A stretch of 24,000 nt of DNA, taken from NCBI RefSeq assembly GCF_008014345.1, contig NZ_VPFL01000012.1, positions 1 through 24,000 of the forward strand. Reading direction: 5' to 3'. How positions within the stretch are numbered: position 1 is the stretch's first letter; each line of letters opens with the position of its first letter. Under the pieces are notes generated by a model. The model did no database searches. It was not told the origin of the DNA and was given only the letters and a program-made list of their open reading frames with translations. Shown here one piece after another: positions 700 through 9,506 of this stretch. Both the position numbers and the translations under genes were made by a program. Source of the DNA: Pelomicrobium methylotrophicum. GTDB taxonomy: Bacteria; Pseudomonadota; Gammaproteobacteria; Burkholderiales; UBA6910.

Positions 700-808
700 C
701 CCAGTCTATTCGGCAAACCCCCGCTGGGGCGGGAGCTGTCAACCCGGCTTGATGCCGTGCCTGCCTTATTTGCAACTCAGTTTAGCACTGAGCTGCTGGT
801 TCATGGAA

Positions 809-879
809 TGGAGCGGACGGGACTCAACCCGCAACCAACAGGTTGGCGCCTGTTGCTCTCCCAGTTGAGCTACCGCCCC
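809..879 (-). tRNA. tRNA-like gene, non-canonical (possible pseudogene or atypical tRNA)
   Basis: The minus strand from 879 to 809 folds by hand as GGGGCGG TA GCTC AACTGGGA GAGC A ACAGG CGCCAA CCTGT TGGTT GCGGG TTGAGT CCCGT CCGCTCC A. The acceptor stem has 7 bp with G3:U70, and the D arm is canonical. Both the anticodon loop (CGCCAA, + strand 843-848) and the T loop (TTGAGT) have 6 nt instead of 7. No CCA is encoded. Confidence 0.5.
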
Positions 880-958
880 AGCGGACAGCGAATATCCGCC
901 CTCTCGCGCTTGTCAGGCGCACGGATATCAGCTGCTGCGGCTTTCCAGCCTCTACCGC

Positions 959-1165
959 TCAGATTGCTTTCCAGCCGGTGACCATTTGGGCGACCGGACG
1001 GCCGCGGCGGAAGATGGTCTTGCGTGCCACGAGGGCACGCTTGCCCCCGCCTTCGTAGAGGGTCAGGGTTCTTCCCTTGGTTCTGACTTCTCCCGTCTTG
1101 ACGAACGGGCCGGCGAAGAACTTTTGAATGCGGGGAGCGTAGCTTCCCCAGTTGACTGTTTTCAT
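959..1165 (-). CDS. Small hypothetical protein (68 aa), array gene 'a'
   Basis: ATG at 1163-1165 (minus strand) is preceded by AAGGAGG (reverse complement of 1171-1177). It translates MKTVNWGSYAPRIQKFFAGPFVKTGEVRTKGRTLTLYEGGG... The longer track ORF (to 1201) would read through the conserved leader. I recognise no family. Confidence 0.55.
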   Translation of the reverse strand: MKTVNWGSYAPRIQKFFAGPFVKTGEVRTKGRTLTLYEGGGKRALVARKTIFRRGRPVAQMVTGWKAI

Positions 1166-1167
1166 AT

Positions 1168-1232
1168 GGGCCTCCTTGTTGAACCGCCCGGAGAAGCCCA
1201 TCCCCCGTCCGGGGAAGGCTCCCCGGGCGGGG
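1168..1232 (-). promoter_or_regulatory. Conserved leader copy 1: SD-sequestering helix + palindrome P1
   Basis: In minus-strand RNA, GGGCUUCU (reverse complement of 1192-1199) pairs with the SD GGAGGCCC (reverse complement of 1168-1175): 8 bp including 2 G:U. P1 arms are CCCCGTCCGGGGA (1203-1215) and TCCCCGGGCGGGG (1220-1232), with loop AGGC. Confidence 0.6.
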
Positions 1233-1260
1233 TTGACAAAATCCGCGTCGCCGCTAATCT
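1233..1260 (+). promoter_or_regulatory. Sigma70-type promoter for X1 (TTGACA-16-TAATCT)
   Basis: TTGACA at 1233-1238 directly abuts P1. TAATCT is at 1255-1260, and the X1 ATG is 29 nt downstream. The same arrangement recurs at 1705-1732 and 2163-2190. Confidence 0.55.
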
Positions 1261-1288: not shown

Positions 1289-1498
1289 ATGAAAAAATTT
1301 CAAGTCGTCGAAGGAAAACGCGAAGAGCTCCGTACGGAAGCTCTTTACGCGCTCTTTGACTATCTGCGCTCAGGCGACCAGGCGGCATCGAATCGCTTCG
1401 ATGCGATTGACAAACGCCTAGCTCGCCGAGCGGAGCTCAACGTTGTTGAAATCTCTCAATCTCCCACCGGGAGATCTTTTCCTCCTCGATTGCCCTGA
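1289..1498 (+). CDS. Small protein X1 (69 aa), paralog family MKKFQV(V/I)EG
   Basis: N-terminus MKKFQVVEGKREELRTEALYALF. It aligns with X3 (MKKFQVIEGSRQQMEQKAYEAF), and the DNA differences fall mostly at codon third positions (aaa/aag, caa/cag, gtc/gtt, gga/ggc). An AAGGA motif lies 9 nt upstream. The last 62 nt overlap gene Yb on the opposite strand. Confidence 0.6.
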   Translation: MKKFQVVEGKREELRTEALYALFDYLRSGDQAASNRFDAIDKRLARRAELNVVEISQSPTGRSFPPRLP

Positions 1499-1640
1499 TC
1501 ATCCGCCGGATGTCCCCGGCAAGGTCCCGGTCAGCGCAATTACTCAACTTCGCCTTTGCTTCTTCCAGAGCGAAATCGAGACCTTCATCCGTGGCCCGAT
1601 CGAGCCAACCATAAAAATCTTTCCAGAATTGCTTGTTCAT
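1437..1640 (-). CDS. Small helical protein Yb (67 aa), paralog family with Yc and Yd
   Basis: ATG at 1638-1640 is preceded by GGAGGAACC. It translates MNKQFWKDFYGWLDRATDEGLDFALEEAKAKL...IEEEKISRWEIERFQQR. It aligns without gaps to Yc/Yd over F..WL..A....L...L. Confidence 0.65.
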   Translation of the reverse strand: MNKQFWKDFYGWLDRATDEGLDFALEEAKAKLSNCADRDLAGDIRRMIRAIEEEKISRWEIERFQQR

Positions 1641-1704
1641 GGTTCCTCCGTTGATGCGCCCGAAGGAACCCATCCCCCGTCCGGGGAAGGCTCCCCGGGC
1701 GGGG
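1641..1704 (-). promoter_or_regulatory. Conserved leader copy 2: SD-sequestering helix + palindrome P1
   Basis: GGUUCCUUCG (reverse complement of 1661-1670) pairs with CGGAGGAACC (reverse complement of 1641-1650): 10 bp including 1 G:U, ending at the AUG. P1 arms are 1675-1687 and 1692-1704. Confidence 0.6.
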
Positions 1705-1732
1705 TTGACAAAACAAGCGTCTCCGCTAACCT
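1705..1732 (+). promoter_or_regulatory. Sigma70-type promoter for X2 (TTGACA-16-TAACCT)
   Basis: TTGACA is at 1705-1710, abutting P1. TAACCT is at 1727-1732. Confidence 0.5.
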
Positions 1733-1763
1733 GCATATCATCTATGCAGATCAGGACGACGAA

Positions 1764-1961
1764 ATGAACGAACTGAAGGTTATCGAGGGCGGCCGAAGGA
1801 TCCTGGAAGAAAAGCTGATCAAGCTTCTCTTCACCCCGGGGCCGGTCCCTTCTGACGAGGTCGAAAGGCTGAATGCCCGGCTTTCATCCCGGGCGAACCT
1901 CAAGATCGTTTCCGATCGCCGAGAGCCAGACGGGCCGCAATCTCCTCTTCGAGGAGGCTGA
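1764..1961 (+). CDS. Small protein X2 (65 aa), paralog of X1/X3
   Basis: ATG at 1764 has AGGA 7 nt upstream. It translates MNELKVIEGGRRILEEKLIKLLF...RLNARLSSRANLKIV. It shares the xxLKVIEGGR N-terminus and the RL..R..L segment with X1/X3. The last 62 nt overlap Yc. Confidence 0.5.
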   Translation: MNELKVIEGGRRILEEKLIKLLFTPGPVPSDEVERLNARLSSRANLKIVSDRREPDGPQSPLRGG

Positions 1962-2100
1962 TTCCCAGCCTCAGGTCTCTCAATCCCTCGCTGGATAGTT
2001 TTTTTTCGTGGAGCCTAAACAGCTCCAACCGCTCTTCAAGCTCATTCAGGCTTGCCTTTCCGAGCCAGCGCATGAACGAGCGCAGCACTTCCTTATCCAC
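1900..2100 (-). CDS. Small helical protein Yc (66 aa)
   Basis: GTG at 2098-2100 lies 5 nt after AGGAGG (reverse complement of 2105-2110). It translates VDKEVLRSFMRWLGKASLNELEERLELFRLHEKKL...LLEEEIAARLALGDRKRS. The longer track ORF would translate the palindrome. Confidence 0.6.
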   Translation of the reverse strand: MDKEVLRSFMRWLGKASLNELEERLELFRLHEKKLSSEGLRDLRLGISLLEEEIAARLALGDRKRS

Positions 2101-2162
2101 GGCATCCTCCTGATGCCCGGAGGAAGCCGCTTCCCCGTCCGGGGAAGGCTCCCCGGGCGGGG
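2101..2162 (-). promoter_or_regulatory. Conserved leader copy 3: SD-sequestering helix + palindrome P1
   Basis: GGCUUCCUCC (reverse complement of 2119-2128) pairs with GGAGGAUGCC (reverse complement of 2101-2110): 9 of 10 bp. P1 arms are 2133-2145 and 2150-2162. Confidence 0.6.
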
Positions 2163-2190
2163 TTGACAAAACCGGCGCCGCCGCTAATCT
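2163..2190 (+). promoter_or_regulatory. Sigma70-type promoter for X3 (TTGACA-16-TAATCT)
   Basis: TTGACA is at 2163-2168, abutting P1. TAATCT is at 2185-2190. Confidence 0.55.
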
Positions 2191-2215
2191 GCAACCATCA
2201 GCAGCGGAGACGGGA

Positions 2216-2410
2216 ATGAAGAAATTTCAGGTTATTGAAGGCTCCAGGCAGCAGATGGAACAGAAGGCTTATGAAGCGTTTTTGGAAAATGACTTCAAGA
2301 CCTTTTTTACAATCTGCCGCAGGATGGACAAAAGAGCCCGCCTCAGCGATGTAACCGGCGAAGCTCCTGGCGAGCCGCCAGCTCCTCGCGGATCATCTCC
2401 GCGGCCCTGA
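2216..2410 (+). CDS. Small protein X3 (64 aa), paralog of X1/X2
   Basis: It translates MKKFQVIEGSRQQMEQKAYEAFLEN...MDKRARLSDV. GGAG lies 7 nt upstream. The last 68 nt overlap Yd. Confidence 0.6.
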   Translation: MKKFQVIEGSRQQMEQKAYEAFLENDFKTFFTICRRMDKRARLSDVTGEAPGEPPAPRGSSPRP

Positions 2411-2537
2411 CCAATCCGGCGCGAATTTCTTCGTCGCCTTTCTTGAGGGCCTGCTCGATGGCGGCGAGCTTTTGGAGAAGCTCGTCATCACTGGCCTCGT
2501 TGCAGAAACGGGCCAGCATTTTGATTGCCTCCTTCAT
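2343..2537 (-). CDS. Small helical protein Yd (64 aa)
   Basis: ATG at 2535-2537 is preceded by GGGAGGAAACC. It translates MKEAIKMLARFCNEASDDELLQKLAAIEQALKKGDEE...IREELAARQELRRLHR. Confidence 0.65.
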   Translation of the reverse strand: MKEAIKMLARFCNEASDDELLQKLAAIEQALKKGDEEIRAGLVRAAEMIREELAARQELRRLHR

Positions 2538-2603
2538 GGTTTCCTCCCGACTTTTCCCCGGAGGAAACCGCTTCCCTGTCCGGGGAAGGCTCCCCGGACG
2601 GGG
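2538..2603 (-). promoter_or_regulatory. Conserved leader copy 4: SD-sequestering helix + palindrome P1
   Basis: GGUUUCCUCC (reverse complement of 2560-2569) pairs with GGAGGAAACC (reverse complement of 2538-2547): a perfect 10 bp ending at the AUG. P1 arms are CCCTGTCCGGGGA (2574-2586) and TCCCCGGACGGGG (2591-2603). Confidence 0.65.
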
Positions 2604-2801: not shown

Positions 2802-2957
2802 ATGATCTCCAAGAGAAAAACGCCAGCCCAAGCAAGGCCGAAAAAGATGCTCCGTCCGGTAGGAAAAACAAAGATTCCGTCGCTTGCAAATGTCAACGAA
2901 GAGCAAAAAGAAATCTTCGTCGAAGCCATTAGAAGAAACAAGAAGATAAAGATTTAG
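2802..2957 (+). CDS. Very basic small protein (51 aa), lower GC than surroundings
   Basis: A strong SD (AAGGAGG) lies 6 nt upstream. It translates MISKRKTPAQARPKKMLRPVGKTKIPSLANVNEEQKEIFVEAIRRNKKIKI. It is convergent with the PemK-like gene. Confidence 0.55.
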   Translation: MISKRKTPAQARPKKMLRPVGKTKIPSLANVNEEQKEIFVEAIRRNKKIKI

Positions 2958-3019: not shown

Positions 3020-3394
3020 TTAGGCGAGCGGGAATCTTACCGCTCTGGCGGCGTTTTCGATCGCCAGTGCCTTCGTGTTGGGGAGCGCTTTGTAACTTCT
3101 CCCCTCCGAAATAACATCCTGGTCAAGAAACGCCACCAGGGATTGTCTCGAGAAACGAAGCACTCCTTCGCCCTCGAGCCCCACCGCCCTCGCCTCGGCA
3201 TCGGTCAGAGTGACTTCGACTTCACCCCTGACTTTTGCGGAGGACGAGAACTTCGCCGCGCCGATGTAAACCACATCCCCTTTCGGGGTTCTGGCGCGGC
3301 CAAGGATGAGGACGGGCCTTATTTTGTACCGCCCGTCTCCTTCTTGAAACGGAACCCTCGCCCTCACGAAGGTCCCTATCGGGACTGCATTCAT
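3020..3394 (-). CDS. PemK/MazF-like toxin-fold protein (124 aa), array gene 'e'
   Basis: ATG at 3392-3394 follows AAGGAGGAGCC. It translates MNAVPIGTFVRARVPFQEGDGRYKIRPVLILGRA...GDVVYIGAAKFSSS. The pattern (G.i..v.fP...g..K.RPvlvl) is typical of PemK/MazF SH3-like toxins. The track ORF extended to 3649 reads through the non-coding repeats. Confidence 0.75.
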   Translation of the reverse strand: MNAVPIGTFVRARVPFQEGDGRYKIRPVLILGRARTPKGDVVYIGAAKFSSSAKVRGEVEVTLTDAEARAVGLEGEGVLRFSRQSLVAFLDQDVISEGRSYKALPNTKALAIENAARAVRFPLA

Positions 3395-3459
3395 GGCTCC
3401 TCCTTTCATTGCCAGGAGGAAGCCTCCCCCGTCCGGGGAAAGGCTTCCACCAGACGGGG
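3395..3459 (-). promoter_or_regulatory. Conserved leader copy 5: SD-sequestering helix + degenerate palindrome P1
   Basis: GGCU(U)CCUCCU (reverse complement of 3414-3424) pairs with AGGAGGAGCC (reverse complement of 3395-3404): 10 bp with one bulge. The outer P1 stem is CCCCGTC (3427-3433) / GACGGGG (3453-3459), and the inner part is imperfect. Confidence 0.6.
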
Positions 3460-3474
3460 TTGAACAACGACCGG

Positions 3475-3551
3475 GACGGCTTCCGCCGCTCGGCCCACAA
3501 GCCCCGCGCGCGGCGGGGCGGACATTGCCGGGATGACCTCCCGGCAGGGTT
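3475..3551. repeat. 77-nt repeat, copy 2 (identical to 2619-2695)
   Basis: 77 of 77 identical by eye. It sits at the same distance from the downstream minus-strand start codon as copy 1 (157 vs 158 nt). Confidence 0.9.
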
Positions 3552-3993: not shown

Positions 3994-4205
3994 TACAAAG
4001 CAGATGCAAGTGCGGAGAAGTCGTGCTTGTTGAAACCGGTCGATACGACTTGTGCCGACTGGACGGCAAGCGGCCCCATCATCCCGGAGATGGGCCGAAC
4101 ACGACGAGGTTCCGCTGCAGAAAATGCCTTGGCTGGCTGGCCGAAACCTGCGAGGAGGCGTCTTTTTCGACGGCGCAGGATTGTGGCAACGCATATCAAC
4201 CTTAA
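3990..4205 (+). CDS. Small Cys-rich (zinc-ribbon-like) protein (71 aa)
   Basis: ATGA coupling to the upstream ORF. It translates MIQSRCKCGEVVLVETGRYDLCRLDG...FRCRKCLGWLAETCEE, with a CxC ... CxxC arrangement. Confidence 0.55.
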   Translation: MIQSRCKCGEVVLVETGRYDLCRLDGKRPHHPGDGPNTTRFRCRKCLGWLAETCEEASFSTAQDCGNAYQP

Positions 4206-5006: not shown

Positions 5007-5082
5007 TTCCTGGCGCCGCAGGCGGCCAGCCTGGCATGAGCCGGCACCGTCCGCTGCTTTTTCTTGAAGACGGGAAAGGCAA

Positions 5083-5346
5083 TCAGCCTTCGTGGTGTTT
5101 GACCGCGTTGCCGTGATGCGCCTTCGCCTTCTGGCGCATCGATTCATGACATTGCTTGAGCGCAGAGACGTCCTCGGCCTTCTCCACGCAGGCCCGGTGC
5201 TCCCGCAGCATCGCCTCCCGGCGGTCGATCCTCTCCAGCGCCCTCGCCTTCATCTGCTGAAAGTCCGGGCCCCCGGGCGCTTTCCCGTCCGCGGCAAAAG
5301 CGCCGAGGGAGAAGACAAGGCCCGCCATCGCAACGAAAAGACGCAT
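5083..5346 (-). CDS. Secreted small helical protein with His-rich C-terminus
   Basis: ATG at 5346 follows AAGGAG. The signal peptide is MRLFVAMAGLVFSLGAFAADG. The C-terminus reads KAKAHHGNAVKHHEG. Confidence 0.6.
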   Translation of the reverse strand: MRLFVAMAGLVFSLGAFAADGKAPGGPDFQQMKARALERIDRREAMLREHRACVEKAEDVSALKQCHESMRQKAKAHHGNAVKHHEG

Positions 5347-5440
5347 CGCCCGCTCCTTCGCATTCAAGGTTGAAAAAAGACGCCGATTTGGACCCCAGAT
5401 CGACCATCGACCGCATCGGTTCCAGGAACGGCATTCGCGC

Positions 5441-5647
5441 TCAGTTGGGCGGCAATCTCCACTTCCATCGCCCAGCGGGCACTTTCATGCTGATCCTCCC
5501 TTTCCCATGGATCTCCACATAGATTTCCAGCTCCCCGGACGGAAGCGCCCTCGCCCTTTCGTCCGGAATGTCAGCCGGATTCACGCCGCGCAGGCAAGCC
5601 GCTGCCCGGCGCCCGCCTTCCGAAACCTCGATTCTTTCTTCGTCCAT
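5441..5647 (-). CDS. Hypothetical small protein (68 aa)
   Basis: ATG at 5645-5647 lies 6 nt after AAGGAG. It translates MDEERIEVSEGGRRAAACLRGVNPADIPDE... Confidence 0.4.
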   Translation of the reverse strand: MDEERIEVSEGGRRAAACLRGVNPADIPDERARALPSGELEIYVEIHGKGRISMKVPAGRWKWRLPPN

Positions 5648-5771
5648 CACTCTCTCCTTCAGGCCGATCGATCAATTCTACCGGTTCCATTAAAATACCG
5701 GCCTGGCGCGGCAAGCTTGCCGCCGCGCCATTCTGAGCTTTCGGACGTCCCAGCTTCGGCCATTGGGAGGC

Positions 5772-6359
5772 TCAAAAAAGCGCGTCCTCCGGCCGTCCGA
5801 GGGCTCGAAGCACGCGCTCCACATCAATGTTGACATCGATCGCCCGAAGCATGCCCTTGATTGATTCCATTGCGATCAGAAGCGCGCCATTTTCATCGAT
5901 GACGCGCCTCCTCACGAGGACGTGCCGAAGTCCAGCCCGCGCCCCCGGCGATCGGCACGCAATCTTTCTCGCGTCGCGGCACTCCAGAATCGCCATGATT
6001 CCTATCGCCCCCGACATCGGTTGGCAGTCCCAAAACGAAAAGTCTTCCCCAAGCAGAGCACTGCTTCGCTCCGGCGTGAGCGCGCCGTTACGCGCGAGAA
6101 GCAGCCACCGTGCGCATCGGACTATGATCTCTCCGGCGAGCCGCGCATCAGTCAGCACGACTGGATCCCAGCGCTCGTCGTCCACGAAACGCACCAGCCT
6201 GGACCGCCTACGCAGCCTTCGTGTCAGCTCTTCCCCTATCACGCCAAGCATTTCGGCATATGCGTTCTCGTCCTGATTGGACAAGCGGTATGGCATCCGC
6301 CAGGCTGGATTCTGCATTTTCAGCCGTCTTTCCATGTCGACACGATATTCTTCGTCCAT
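5772..6359 (-). CDS. Hypothetical protein (195 aa)
   Basis: ATG is preceded by GAGGAGACTTGAA. It is a long ORF with a non-repetitive composition. I recognise no family. Confidence 0.6.
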   Translation of the reverse strand: MDEEYRVDMERRLKMQNPAWRMPYRLSNQDENAYAEMLGVIGEELTRRLRRRSRLVRFVDDERWDPVVLTDARLAGEIIVRCARWLLLARNGALTPERSSALLGEDFSFWDCQPMSGAIGIMAILECRDARKIACRSPGARAGLRHVLVRRRVIDENGALLIAMESIKGMLRAIDVNIDVERVLRALGRPEDALF

Positions 6360-6995
6360 TTCAAGTCTCCTCGATTTGTCGGTCCGTTATGTCGGCACCT
6401 GTATATATGTCGACGAGGAAATCCATGGACCCCGGCTTTCTTGCCGTGCGTTCGGCTGGCGGCCTCCCGCGCCTGGCCTGATGCGTCCTCCGTTGCGATT
6501 GCCGGCGGATGACGGCTTCTTGCCGACCATGGCGCCTTAATCAAAAGACGCCCGTCCACCTCATGCCCCGCCCTTCGTGGCATATGATGGCCGTCCGCGG
6601 GCCCGCAGACCAATGGTTCCCTGGACGATGCGCATGCAACGGAGTCCGCGGTTTGCCGGGCATCCCACCTGGCGCCTCTTTGGGAGATGACGCCCAAAGA
6701 TGCCCAAGAACGACTCAAGATCGACTTGGCGCTCTTCAACAAGAAACGGCGGCCGGCTGGCTCCTCTTCTCTACAACGCCCAGCGCCCCAACCATCGCCT
6801 GGGGCAACAAGCGCCCCTACAATTCCTCCTCCAACATCAACCCCGGCGCCAGAGGTGCTGGACTCATATCTTCAGCCCAAAGAGGATGTTAGTTGAAAGA
6901 TTTCCAGATCGGCCTCCATTGGCTAAAACCCAGGCTTGCATGCAGCGCGGTTTATGATGTAATGGCGCAGACTGAGGTTTCATCGTCGGCGCGGC

Positions 6996-7381
6996 ATGGA
7001 AATAAAGGAAACCCGAAAAAAAGACGGAACCCGCGAATGGAGGTTTTGCGGCAAACTCCACCGCGTGGACGGCCCGGCTGTTGAAAAGGCCGATGGCACG
7101 AGGGAGTGGTGGCGGGAAGGCAAGTTGCACCGCAAACACGAGCCTGCAGTAGAAAGCCTGATGGGACTAAAGAATGGTGGAGGCATGGCAAGCTGCACCG
7201 CATTCTCGCTCCGTCAGTAGAGCGTCCGGATGGCACGAAAGAATGGTGGCGGTTTGGCAAGCGCCATCGGGAGGATGGGCCGGCTGTAGAAAAGGCCGAC
7301 GGCACGAAGGAATGGTGGGTCGATGGACGGAGGCTCGATCCGATCGAATTCATAGCGTTGCGTTGCACCGGCCCTTCCTGA
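6996..7381 (+). pseudogene. MORN-repeat protein, frameshifted
   Basis: There are five 23-aa repeats (DGT[RK]EWW..GKLHR.DGPAVEKA). Reading switches from the frame of 6996 to the frame of 7157 at 7152-7159. The sequence there is GAAAGCCTGAT, where the paralogous repeat junctions read GAAAAGGCCGAT, so it is one base short. The first frame stops at 7218-7220. Confidence 0.7.
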
Positions 7382-7513
7382 CGGCCGGCCGGAGACCTCG
7401 GCGACGGCCGCCATCCGCGCCCGCAAAAGGAGACGGTTGGACGTGCAGAGCATGGAGCATGGAGGCCGCCTTCGAATCCGTTTGAGCGACTGGCCGTTTT
7501 CGTCTAATATTAT

Positions 7514-7525
7514 GTGAACGTTCAC
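7514..7525. promoter_or_regulatory. Perfect 12-bp palindrome GTGAACGTTCAC between a TAATAT -10-like box and the methyltransferase start
   Basis: GTGAAC|GTTCAC is at 7514-7525, TAATAT at 7505-7510 and the ATG at 7536. This position fits an operator. Assigning it as one is inference. Confidence 0.4.
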
Positions 7526-7535
7526 GAAGAAAAAC

Positions 7536-8555
7536 ATGGACGACACAGCAGTTCTACGCCAGAGAAAACGCCTGGAGCGGTTGGCGAAAAGAGGAATAAA
7601 GCGCAGCACTGTCATGGTGCACGATGCCTGTCGCTCTGCGCTGGATGCGCTTCGACCCCACTATATCGATCCATCAAGTGCGCAGGCTCTGCAAAGAGCC
7701 GCCGTAATCGTAAAGAGCGAGACGAGGCTCGTTAACGTAGCGCAGGTCAGGCAACTAAGTCCTTTCCGTTACCCTGGCGGAAAGACATGGCTCGTGCCAG
7801 AGGTAAAAACGTGGTTGCGATCGTTGCCCCGGCGACCGTCGATTTTTCTGGAACCATTTGCTGGAGGCGCGATCGTCGGTCTGACGGTGGCCGCAGAAAG
7901 CATGGCCGGCAAGGTCATACTGTGCGAGCTTGATGATTCAGTTGCAGCTGTCTGGAAAACGCTGATTCACGGAACCGACACGGACGCGAATTGGCTATGT
8001 GATCGGATCCTCAAATTCGAGGTCACGGAAGACAACGTGCGATCATTGCTTGAAAAAAAAGTCAAAAGCGACAGGGAAAGGGCTTTTCAGACCATCGTTC
8101 GAAACCGCATGCAGCGCGGCGGCATCCTGGCTCCAGGCGCTTCTCTGATGAAGTCTGGCGAGAACGGAAGGGGCCTGGGATCGAGGTGGTATCCGGAAAC
8201 GTTGGTTTCCAGAATCAAGGCTATTCGGAACATCAGACACAGAATTGAGTTCCGACACCAGGACGCCTTTGATCTTATCAAAGAATACACTGCCAAGAAC
8301 GATGTCGCCTGGTTTGTGGATCCTCCTTACACGGCCGGCGGAAAGCGAGCTGGAGCGCGCCTCTATACACACACGCAGATAGATCACGACAGACTGTTTC
8401 GGGAGATGTCCTGCACAAAAGGAGATGTATTGATGACTTATGATGATGCGCCCGAAGTCGCGCATCTTGCGGAACGATATGGAATGGGCATTAGAAAAGT
8501 GCCTATGAAAAGCACGCACCACGCGATCATGTACGAACTTCTTTTATCAAAATAG
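7536..8555 (+). CDS. N6-adenine DNA methyltransferase, Dam/D12 class, with ~75-aa N-terminal extension
   Basis: Motifs present: FRYPGGK, EPFAGGA and VDPPYT, in the order typical of Dam-like (alpha group) m6A methyltransferases. The region has lower GC than its flanks. Confidence 0.9.
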   Translation: MDDTAVLRQRKRLERLAKRGIKRSTVMVHDACRSALDALRPHYIDPSSAQALQRAAVIVKSETRLVNVAQVRQLSPFRYPGGKTWLVPEVKTWLRSLPRRPSIFLEPFAGGAIVGLTVAAESMAGKVILCELDDSVAAVWKTLIHGTDTDANWLCDRILKFEVTEDNVRSLLEKKVKSDRERAFQTIVRNRMQRGGILAPGASLMKSGENGRGLGSRWYPETLVSRIKAIRNIRHRIEFRHQDAFDLIKEYTAKNDVAWFVDPPYTAGGKRAGARLYTHTQIDHDRLFREMSCTKGDVLMTYDDAPEVAHLAERYGMGIRKVPMKSTHHAIMYELLLSK

Positions 8556-9506
8556 TTTGATGACCTTCTTACGCTTATTTGAGGCTTTTTCTATCAAGTC
8601 GTTTAGTTGAGACGTGAATCGGTTGGCCGGAATGGGAAGCGCAGCTTCAACGGCTTTGACGGAGCTGATTAGAGTTGTGTAATGCTCATTTACTACCTTT
8701 GCACACTCTCCAGGCCGAAGATCAACAACGAACCAAACTATTTGTGACAAAGCGAGCTTCTCAAGGCGCAGTTCTTCGTCGTTCATGCCGTCGCAGTTTA
8801 CGCTGACCTCCTCGAGTTCAGCCATTTGGCTGCGAACGTATGTATCCACGATGACGGCCAGGTATTTGCCACTGCCCAAGTATGGCGCTTTCAACATCAA
8901 TTGGGGTGACAAACGTTTCGGAACCGAGCTGCGATAATCCGGCCTTCGCCGCGCAACAGGCATTGTCAGTTCTCCGCCGGCTGAGATAATGGCATCGAAT
9001 TCTATTTTCATGTTGCGTCCAGAAAAATAGACGGACTGCGTTTCGACAGCGCACCATCTCTTACGATCAATGTTGTCGACGAGCACAAAGTCGAGGCGCC
9101 CTGCCTTTGCGCCGATGAATTGACTATTTGCCGCCGCATTCTGAAGAAAAGGGACCTCGCGCACCAAATAGACCTCGTCAGAGCCAAGGATGGCTTTCCC
9201 TATGCGCTTGAAAACCTCTGGCTCAAGCAGTCTCGAAGGGCAGAGAGAAACAATGTCTTGCGAAACATTTGGCAGATTGTCGTCAGTCGACTGTGTATAT
9301 AGCGCGATGCTGCATACCCCTCCGTTTTTATTGCACATCATGGGCCTGCCAAACAGTCTCGTGCGATATGGGCATTCGAGATTTGCAACTTTATGCGTTA
9401 GTTTTGCTTTATGAGCGAATTCAAGGCGGTCATTGGCGGTCATGGAGACAATTGGCCTGCCGAACCACTCCGAGATTCCATACTTTATGGCAACCATTTC
9501 TTGCAT
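8547..9506 (-). CDS. Type II restriction endonuclease, NotI-family-like
   Basis: It is convergent with the methyltransferase and overlaps it by 9 nt. The N-terminus reads SEWFG ... CPYRTRLFGRPMMCNKNGGVCSI ... LCPSR, and later ETQSVYFSG. From memory this resembles the NotI Cys cluster and the E.Q...F.G core. It shares the low-GC island. Confidence 0.7.
   Translation of the reverse strand: MQEMVAIKYGISEWFGRPIVSMTANDRLEFAHKAKLTHKVANLECPYRTRLFGRPMMCNKNGGVCSIALYTQSTDDNLPNVSQDIVSLCPSRLLEPEVFKRIGKAILGSDEVYLVREVPFLQNAAANSQFIGAKAGRLDFVLVDNIDRKRWCAVETQSVYFSGRNMKIEFDAIISAGGELTMPVARRRPDYRSSVPKRLSPQLMLKAPYLGSGKYLAVIVDTYVRSQMAELEEVSVNCDGMNDEELRLEKLALSQIVWFVVDLRPGECAKVVNEHYTTLISSVKAVEAALPIPANRFTSQLNDLIEKASNKRKKVIKLF

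Follow-up and report, generated by a model that had tools for sequence, protein, structure and literature searches.

Three convergent gene pairs with overlapping 3' ends

We analysed 24,000 nt of Pelomicrobium methylotrophicum (RefSeq assembly GCF_008014345.1, contig NZ_VPFL01000012.1, positions 1 to 24,000), referred to below as the window. Near its start lie three convergent pairs of small open reading frames (ORFs), X1/Yb, X2/Yc and X3/Yd, whose 3' ends overlap by 62, 62 and 68 nt in the ORF list. These pairs and their overlaps had been described in a prediction made from the sequence alone (the original prediction), and the coordinates were reproduced exactly (Table 1). The X paralogs of the window share 29-38% identity and the motifs M..[FL].V[IV]EG.R and R...RA.L..V, and the Y paralogs share 26-33% identity. 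A plausible ribosome-binding site (RBS) precedes every Y and every window X.

A core repeat of ~56 nt is present in five copies, each directly upstream of a minus-strand gene: Ya, Yb, Yc, Yd and the gene for a 124-aa protein. Each copy belongs to a leader (R1-R5) in which we distinguish a hairpin, P1, from a second stem, P2, described below. We define a module as convergent X and Y homologs, an overlap whose length is 2 mod 3, and a P1+P2 leader before Y; all three window pairs have this composition. A site resembling an intrinsic terminator within the X1/Yb overlap (1459-1475) is not kept in the related locus L001 and was taken as chance.

Table 1. Features of the X/Y array and its surroundings in the window. 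SD, Shine-Dalgarno sequence; MFE, minimum free energy structure; z, folding score relative to dinucleotide shuffles.
Feature	Positions	Strand	Remarks
X1	1289-1498	+	69 aa; conserved core of ~50 aa, then variable tail
Yb	1437-1640	-	67 aa
X1/Yb overlap	1437-1498		62 nt
X2	1764-1961	+	65 aa; 'TPGP' subfamily
Yc	1900-2100	-	66 aa; GTG start
X2/Yc overlap	1900-1961		62 nt
X3	2216-2410	+	64 aa
Yd	2343-2537	-	64 aa
X3/Yd overlap	2343-2410		68 nt
Core repeat, five copies	1186-1241, 1658-1713, 2116-2171, 2557-2612, ~3407-3465		~56 nt
Leader R1 of Ya	1166-1232	-	P1 1203-1232, then anti-SD segment, then SD; fold z = -2.9
Leader R2 of Yb	1641-1704	-	P1 1675-1704; P2 adjoins start codon; SD paired in MFE, z = -4.1
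Leader R3 of Yc	2101-2162	-	P1 2133-2162; MFE is P1 + P2, z = -4.8
Leader R4 of Yd	2538-2603	-	P1 2574-2603; perfect 10-bp anti-SD:SD stem; z = -5.3
Leader R5 of 124-aa gene	3395-3466	-	fold z = -5.1
X1 promoter-like site	1233-1260	+	TTGACA 1233-1238, 16-nt spacer, TAATCT 1255-1260; abuts P1; by eye
X2 promoter-like site	1705-1732	+	TTGACA, 16-nt spacer, TAACCT; by eye
X3 promoter-like site	2163-2190	+	TTGACA, 16-nt spacer, TAATCT; by eye
D5 repeat, two copies	2594-2695, 3450-3551		102 nt, 96% identical; replaces the X promoter after R4 and R5
Ya	959-1165	-	68 aa; not related to Y; leader R1; strong RBS
51-aa ORF	2802-2957	+	basic product; own RBS; TTGCAT-N17-TAAAGT site
124-aa gene	3020-3394	-	Pfam PemK_toxin E = 0.11, sub-threshold; leader R5

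Purifying selection on X and Y

A sister lineage (L001-L005), found by exact-protein look-ups and 83-93% identical to the window at the DNA level, allowed substitutions to be counted by the Nei-Gojobori method. Outside the overlaps, X differs at 35 synonymous and 16 non-synonymous positions, giving a ratio of non-synonymous to synonymous differences per site (pN/pS) of 0.13 (binomial p = 3.7e-12). The other five frames of this region are neutral or contain 3-10 stop codons. The signal is thus confined to the annotated frame, and the protein-level conservation claimed earlier for the X N-termini is borne out. Taken singly, the genes give values of 0.08 (X1, outside its overlap), 0.16 (X2) and 0.06 (X3), and the X1 ortholog P0003 is 78% identical. 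Y outside the overlaps has a pN/pS of 0.33 (p = 1e-4), with 0.22-0.38 for Yd and 0.18-0.19 for Yb, inside and outside its overlap alike.

Within the overlap, pN/pS is 0.27 in the Y frame versus 1.5-2.9 in the X frame, as expected from the original prediction, which took Y to be the constrained frame there. Each synonymous Y change falls on position 2 of an X codon, so the X value means less constraint than on Y and is not proof that constraint is absent. Judged by these substitution patterns, X and Y are both real coding genes under purifying selection. Yb is also carried as a hypothetical protein in a metagenome-assembled genome (MAG) at NCBI.

Conservation of the pair across bacterial classes

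A search of 1.84 billion representative proteins with a hidden Markov model (HMM) of the X core matched ~20 small proteins (56-86 aa, E 1e-7 to 1e-3) across the whole core. In this family Gly9 and Arg11 are invariant and a C-terminal motif, RL..RA.L.hV, is followed by variable tails; the comparison upheld the earlier description of the X tails as Pro/Gly/Ser-rich and non-conserved. On the contigs of P0035 and P0036, which are ~30% identical to window X, a convergent gene overlaps X by 80 nt and 41 nt, respectively. Both partners are clear Y homologs (e.g. MNKFTIKAFIAWLETASQEQ...LRLIDEEIIARLELSKSGDQ). Lack of conservation outside this locus had been named at the outset as evidence that X is untranslated; X instead has about 20 or more relatives, and their partners are Y homologs.

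Back-translated Y patterns identified 11 loci in GTDB genomes, from Thioalkalivibrio species, gammaproteobacterial MAGs, a Gallionella MAG and Methylomicrobium, and 33 loci in metagenomes. The Thioalkalivibrio carriers include T. denitrificans ALJD and the strains ALE14, ALJ16 and ALMg11. All loci were scanned with X and Y profile HMMs, yielding 50 distinct Y sequences, two of them too near a contig end to be assessed. A convergent, overlapping X accompanies 38 of the 48 assessable Y and 10 lack it. X and Y are convergent in all 38 pairs, and the pair, its frame relation and its leader structure are conserved. The overlaps range from 38 to 104 nt (median ~71 nt, mean ~23 codons), so the conserved length of 62-68 nt proposed earlier does not extend to the family. 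Their length is 2 mod 3 in 38/38 pairs, which always places X codon position 2 opposite Y position 3. Stop codons occur at 5.1 per 100 codons in the observed antisense frame, versus 2.7 and 1.5 in the other two. The observed frame is thus the richest in stops, and stop avoidance does not explain its constancy. Pairwise distances of X and Y correlate (r = 0.33; none of 2000 Mantel permutations was as high), which would fit co-inheritance as a unit. Tandem stacks of modules also occur at L046 and L058.

Age and turnover of the window modules

Distances between the window X cores (0.59-0.7) and between the window Y (~0.7) equal those from modules in other classes. Elsewhere, X1 resembles P0025, P0013 and P0023, X2 is closest to the 'TPGP'-type proteins P0015, P0017, P0022 and P0036, and X3 to P0021. 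Yc is closest to the Y of L015 and L017, the Y type that accompanies TPGP-type X, and at L031 a Yd-like remnant accompanies the X3-like P0021. Since the window modules are as distant from each other as from those of other classes, they are old diverged subfamilies and not recent duplicates. The proposal that the layout was kept through three duplications accordingly finds no support, as each X has closer relatives elsewhere.

Modules have been gained and lost between lineages. The L001-L005 lineage has neither Yc nor R3 (window 1901-2182 is missing), and in L001 (1190-1533, the counterpart of window 1764-2410) an in-frame fusion has joined X2 and X3 into a 143-aa ORF, P0010. They meet in a GCGAACCT/GCTAATCT microhomology, and the start codon of X3 in this lineage is GTG. 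L010 lacks an 856-bp segment between the D5 copies, i.e. exactly one R+D5 unit with that segment.

Leader structure and putative X promoters

On the minus strand, P1 is a two-tier hairpin (CCCCG.CCGGGGA / UCCCCGG.CGGGG). P2 pairs the Shine-Dalgarno sequence with an upstream complement, for example GGUUUCCUCC with GGAGGAAACC. The leaders of distant Y genes have other sequences and the same architecture, with an outer CCC/GGG stem, an internal loop and an inner stem of 5-8 bp (GGGCAUU/AAUGCCC, GGGGAG/CUCCCC, CAAGGG/CCCUUG or GCGGGGA/UCCCCGC), and there too P2 covers the Shine-Dalgarno sequence. RNAalifold on MAFFT leader alignments missed this structure because the stems vary in sequence and length, and per-sequence folds with shuffled controls were used instead. 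All 16 leaders fold better than dinucleotide shuffles (z -1.8 to -6.1). The minimum free energy structure is P1 + P2 with the Shine-Dalgarno sequence paired in 15 of them, R1 alone taking an alternative pairing. As a predicted fold, the P1+P2 structure is conserved. Rfam searches of the window and related loci, at the gathering threshold and in a permissive E-value mode, returned nothing but tRNAs and an unrelated ALIL element, and GTDB genomes scanned for exact matches to the core repeat yielded none. The leader appears undescribed in the libraries searched.

Control regions are near-identical within an array (a 30-nt core is identical in R1-R3, as are the copies at L046) and are the most diverged segments between lineages. 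This combination reflects concerted evolution beside highly diverged coding parts.

On the plus strand, the order at R1-R3 is P1, promoter-like site, short hairpin, RBS and X. Promoter-like sites also lie beside P1 before other X genes, with TTGACA-N16-TAGGAT at L031, TTGATT-N17-TACGCT at L020, TTGAAG...TAATAC at L028, and TTGGGT...TAGAAT or TAGACT at L026 and L046. From the predicted promoters, the window X genes would have 5' untranslated regions of ~23-31 nt with an RBS. At several other X genes (L015 at ~3995-4015, L020, L026, L028 and L046) the ATG follows a -10-like hexamer by only 6-9 nt and no Shine-Dalgarno sequence is present, which suggests that several X mRNAs outside the window may be leaderless. 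The D5 repeat, found after R4 and R5, ends in a degenerate P1-like hairpin.

A longer structured repeat of 150-230 nt occurs in 5-7 copies each at L020 (1801-8478), L024 (5378-9675) and L028 (3886-10807), before most co-directional genes of the integrative conjugative elements (ICEs) found there. Its hairpins are capped by UUCG, a pseudoknot (GGACC...GGTCC) is possible, and the fold of one copy scores z = -4.9. The 3' end of the repeat is the P1+P2 leader of the window. It matched no Rfam family, radC and STAXI included.

Protein families and predicted folds

Word-indexed searches found no X or Y relatives beyond the locus itself and the sister lineage. Neither protein matched Pfam, NCBIfam, PHROGs or PADLOC, and PDB sequence profiles gave only designed helical proteins with weak E-values. 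By tblastn, Y had no match in PLSDB plasmids or INPHARED phages, and likewise none in IMG/VR. AlphaFold2 modelled X1 as a helical hairpin (predicted local distance difference test score, pLDDT, 88) and Yb as a three-helix bundle (pLDDT 94.5). Y is charged and predicted to be soluble, and X is hydrophilic as well. Foldseek searches of the PDB with these models gave generic helical matches only (E > 0.5). A ribbon-helix-helix fold was considered for X and not adopted; the N-terminus of the model is a helix at low confidence. X and Y each represent an uncharacterised family of small proteins, and both families appear undescribed in the libraries searched.

Genomic setting

At the genome loci with sufficient flanking sequence, Y is co-directional with genes for ParB, DUF3577, topoisomerase III (TopB), RadC, a DUF6094 methyltransferase with an SNF2 helicase, and a lytic transglycosylase (SLT), a gene set which we take to be that of PFGI-1/ICEclc-type elements. 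At L017 and L030 it is co-directional with SSB, RecT and YqaJ. X is the sole gene on the opposite strand, placed between Y and the leader that follows.

The window itself holds a mobile island beside a tRNA gene. The island encodes a large serine recombinase with DUF2924, an Integrase_1 protein, a ParM-like protein, a NotI-like endonuclease with a D12 methylase, SRAP, SNase and DUF4326 proteins and a TraR/DksA zinc-finger protein. The D12-class adenine methyltransferase (+) and the NotI-family restriction endonuclease (-) are convergent at 7536-9506 and form a restriction-modification pair. The tRNA gene (808-880, minus strand; 47 bits in Rfam) was given the anticodon '(cc)' without an assigned identity by ARAGORN, and the array begins 79 nt from its 5' side. 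An ORF at 7035-7318 contains about four tandem coding repeats of 68-69 nt of the EWW..GK.HR..GPA type (MORN-like, by eye).

Within the array, Ya shows 6 differences in 204 nt from L001 (pN/pS 0.31). The 51-aa ORF and the 124-aa gene also converge, but without an overlap. Ya and these two had no match in Pfam, NCBIfam, PHROGs or PADLOC apart from the sub-threshold PemK match. The near-identical loci L007 and L008 have ~1 kb more than the window on the tRNA side up to a GspE-like gene (L007 7599-8562, against window ~481-672), including a STIV_B116-like ORF. At L014, which has an X homolog (P0032) and no Y, positions 5024-8062 contain ~17 tRNA genes in 3 kb, which suggests that the contig is a large phage or similar element.

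A proposed antagonistic pair coupled by convergent transcription

We read the array as a tandem stack of three diverged X/Y modules on ICE-type elements, each an antagonistic pair coupled by convergent transcription, and hold this reading tentatively, with slightly less than even confidence. The mobile setting and the purifying selection on both genes are observed; the activity of the X promoters, coupling by antisense RNA or interference, the X-Y protein interaction and the biological role are what we infer. Y (~65 aa, three helices) would be made from transcripts running in the direction of the element, with its start site hidden by P2. As P2 pairs the RBS with its complement, Y translation is proposed to be held off by default. 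X, a helical-hairpin core of ~45-50 aa with a variable tail, would be made from its own sigma-70-like promoter beside P1 of the following leader. Because the genes converge, the X transcript would be antisense to the end of Y and to transcripts that read through from Y into the next gene, and vice versa. If both genes are transcribed, overlapping transcripts are unavoidable, and in operon settings the overlap would also span the whole X region. Transcription of one gene would then hinder the other, by polymerase collision and/or formation of an RNA duplex. The X and Y proteins would be a cognate, co-diversifying antagonistic pair.

Several results weigh against this reading. A strict consensus scanner called no X promoter (the -10 of the X1 site matches 3/6 positions), the window yielded no identifiable promoter for Y, and structure searches gave no informative fold match for X or Y. 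Seven of the 10 Y without X form one Methylomicrobium-type clade (L030, L059-L064), and X lacks an intact Y at L014, L033 and L031, the last with Y reduced to its C-terminal half. Neither gene thus strictly requires the other. Random termination in the observed frame predicts runs of ~20 codons, near the observed mean, and overlap length therefore looks unselected. The correlation of X and Y distances would also be given by simple linkage.

In a rival that we consider unlikely, X and Y are independent small genes from one region of the mobile element, and their overlap arose by chance through tight packing and then became frozen, the X frame running to the first stop inside Y with no selected coupling. 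This rival accounts for overlap lengths close to those expected from antisense stop density, for an X tail with no evident constraint of its own and for the occurrence of each gene without the other; an overlap, once formed, is hard to undo, which would be enough to keep the frame fixed. It accounts less well for the retention of X at 38/48 assessable Y across bacterial classes at ~30% protein identity. Nor does any pair overlap by less than 38 nt, where about half would be expected under random termination, although conserved Y codons could freeze a stop-free run. Convergent transcripts must, moreover, meet whatever the origin of the overlap.

We regard as similarly doubtful a toxin-antitoxin-like pair serving addiction or defence. 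Here Y would be a growth inhibitor held low by sequestration of its RBS and X, expressed from a constitutive promoter, a labile antidote with a disordered tail, the convergent layout adding antisense control of the type I kind. X and Y are indeed small genes co-inherited as pairs on mobile elements, in tandem arrays that differ in module content, and the X tail is variable and Pro/Gly/Ser-rich. In type I toxin mRNAs the translation start is sequestered, and the hidden start of Y recalls them. The nearby cassette with the same leader, a weakly PemK/MazF-like protein and a convergent small ORF points the same way, but its PemK match is sub-threshold (E = 0.11). X and Y themselves show no similarity to toxin or antitoxin families in Pfam, NCBIfam, PADLOC or PDB. 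Y is modelled as a soluble, charged three-helix bundle, neither a membrane peptide nor a nuclease fold, and in one entire clade it has no X, an unexpected situation for a toxin.

The type I loci txpA/RatA, bsrG/SR4 and par of pAD1 have convergent, 3'-overlapping transcripts. The likeness to X/Y lies in two convergent units on mobile DNA that overlap at their 3' ends, in a target whose start is hidden in a hairpin, and in the RNA duplex and RNase III cleavage that would be the expected consequence. Their antitoxin is, however, a non-coding antisense RNA, whereas X is a conserved protein gene under purifying selection; their toxin is a small hydrophobic membrane peptide, whereas Y is charged and predicted to be a soluble three-helix protein; and there is no sequence relationship to X or Y. 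Type II systems are co-directional bicistronic operons, whereas X and Y converge in every pair, and neither shows homology to the known superfamilies (Pfam, NCBIfam, PADLOC, PHROGs and PDB sequences; Foldseek against the PDB).

The prgQ/prgX genes of pCF10 form a convergent-promoter switch on a conjugative element. Another convergent switch is scbA/scbR of Streptomyces (PMC3134472), and such switches have been modelled in general terms (PMC4519249). As in X/Y, protein-coding units face each other; their control is reciprocal, by transcriptional interference and antisense RNA, and reciprocal interference would also be the simplest reading of X/Y. Those units overlap at or near their 5' ends and promoters and involve known regulators, whereas X and Y overlap 3' to 3' and are uncharacterised. 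Coupling by convergent transcription or antisense RNA is already known as a principle from mobile DNA; a convergent pair in a fixed frame appears undescribed in the libraries searched.

In a more speculative role, to which we give little credence, the module would serve conjugative elements as a strand-asymmetric timing switch. Y and the neighbouring genes in its direction would be expressed early, either from the incoming strand or by read-through, and P1+P2 would gate their translation. The second strand would have to be synthesised before X, which lies on the complementary strand behind an ordinary double-strand promoter, could be made. X would then turn off the early set, both through convergent transcription and by binding to Y. 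By analogy, such a switch may fit what is known of conjugative leading regions, in which repeated structured Frpo/ssi elements precede co-directional ssb, parB, methyltransferase and anti-defence-type genes and toxin-antitoxin genes are common (PMC11541004). The X/Y loci resemble these regions in that repeated structured elements precede co-directional genes. Frpo/ssi is, however, a long imperfect hairpin that rebuilds double-stranded -35/-10 boxes (PMC11541004), whereas the P1+P2 leader is ~65 nt long and has no paired -35/-10 boxes. The radC (RF01754) and STAXI (RF01728) motifs are structured repeats near radC, ssb, topoisomerase, integrase and antirestriction genes of mobile DNA (PMC2864571). 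Their gene neighbourhoods are similar to those of the P1+P2 leader, but their covariance models gave no match even at E < 10 in the window and related loci, L020 and L028 included.

It is very improbable that the repeats are attC-like sites of an integron-type cassette array or of an attC cluster without integrase. As in integron arrays, small genes of unrelated kinds lie between hairpin repeats (five here, 441-856 nt apart), lineages differ in the units that they carry, and repeats of one lineage are uniform; R4 and R5 even carry GTTGAAC, which fits GTTRRRY. Integrons have IntI and attI nearby and place their paired R'' (RYYYAAC) and R' (GTTRRRY) cores 3' of the genes, whereas the 24 kb of the window contain no IntI (its single tyrosine recombinase belongs to Integrase_1), the repeats lack an R''/R' inverted core pair, and each lies 5' of its gene as a leader whose stem pairs that gene's own RBS. 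The same leader also occurs inside ICE gene strings of other genomes, the deletion endpoints in L001 do not lie at a repeat, and the idea is largely refuted. Lastly, that the X ORFs are untranslated and the plus-strand transcripts only antisense RNAs against Y, as might be supposed from a related NCBI MAG in which only the Y genes are annotated, with consecutive locus tags, and from the lack of a separate gene call for X2 in the protein database, is scarcely credible and was rejected on the frame-specific selection on X and the wider X protein family, with its invariant Gly-x-Arg motif across distant lineages, the window X genes also having ribosome-binding sites.

Significance

Long antisense overlaps in which both bacterial protein genes are under selection are rare, and conservation as deep as this, in which different bacterial classes keep one frame relation at ~30% protein identity, is rarer still. 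The X/Y overlap lies in small-gene regions of ICEs, which are poorly understood. The P1+P2 leader hides the RBS of many mobile-element genes and may be a general control point of these elements. Were the timing switch true, diverged modules under one control region would provide several specificities with one regulatory input. Thioalkalivibrio carriers are in culture, and the module is a concrete, testable case of coupling by convergent transcription.

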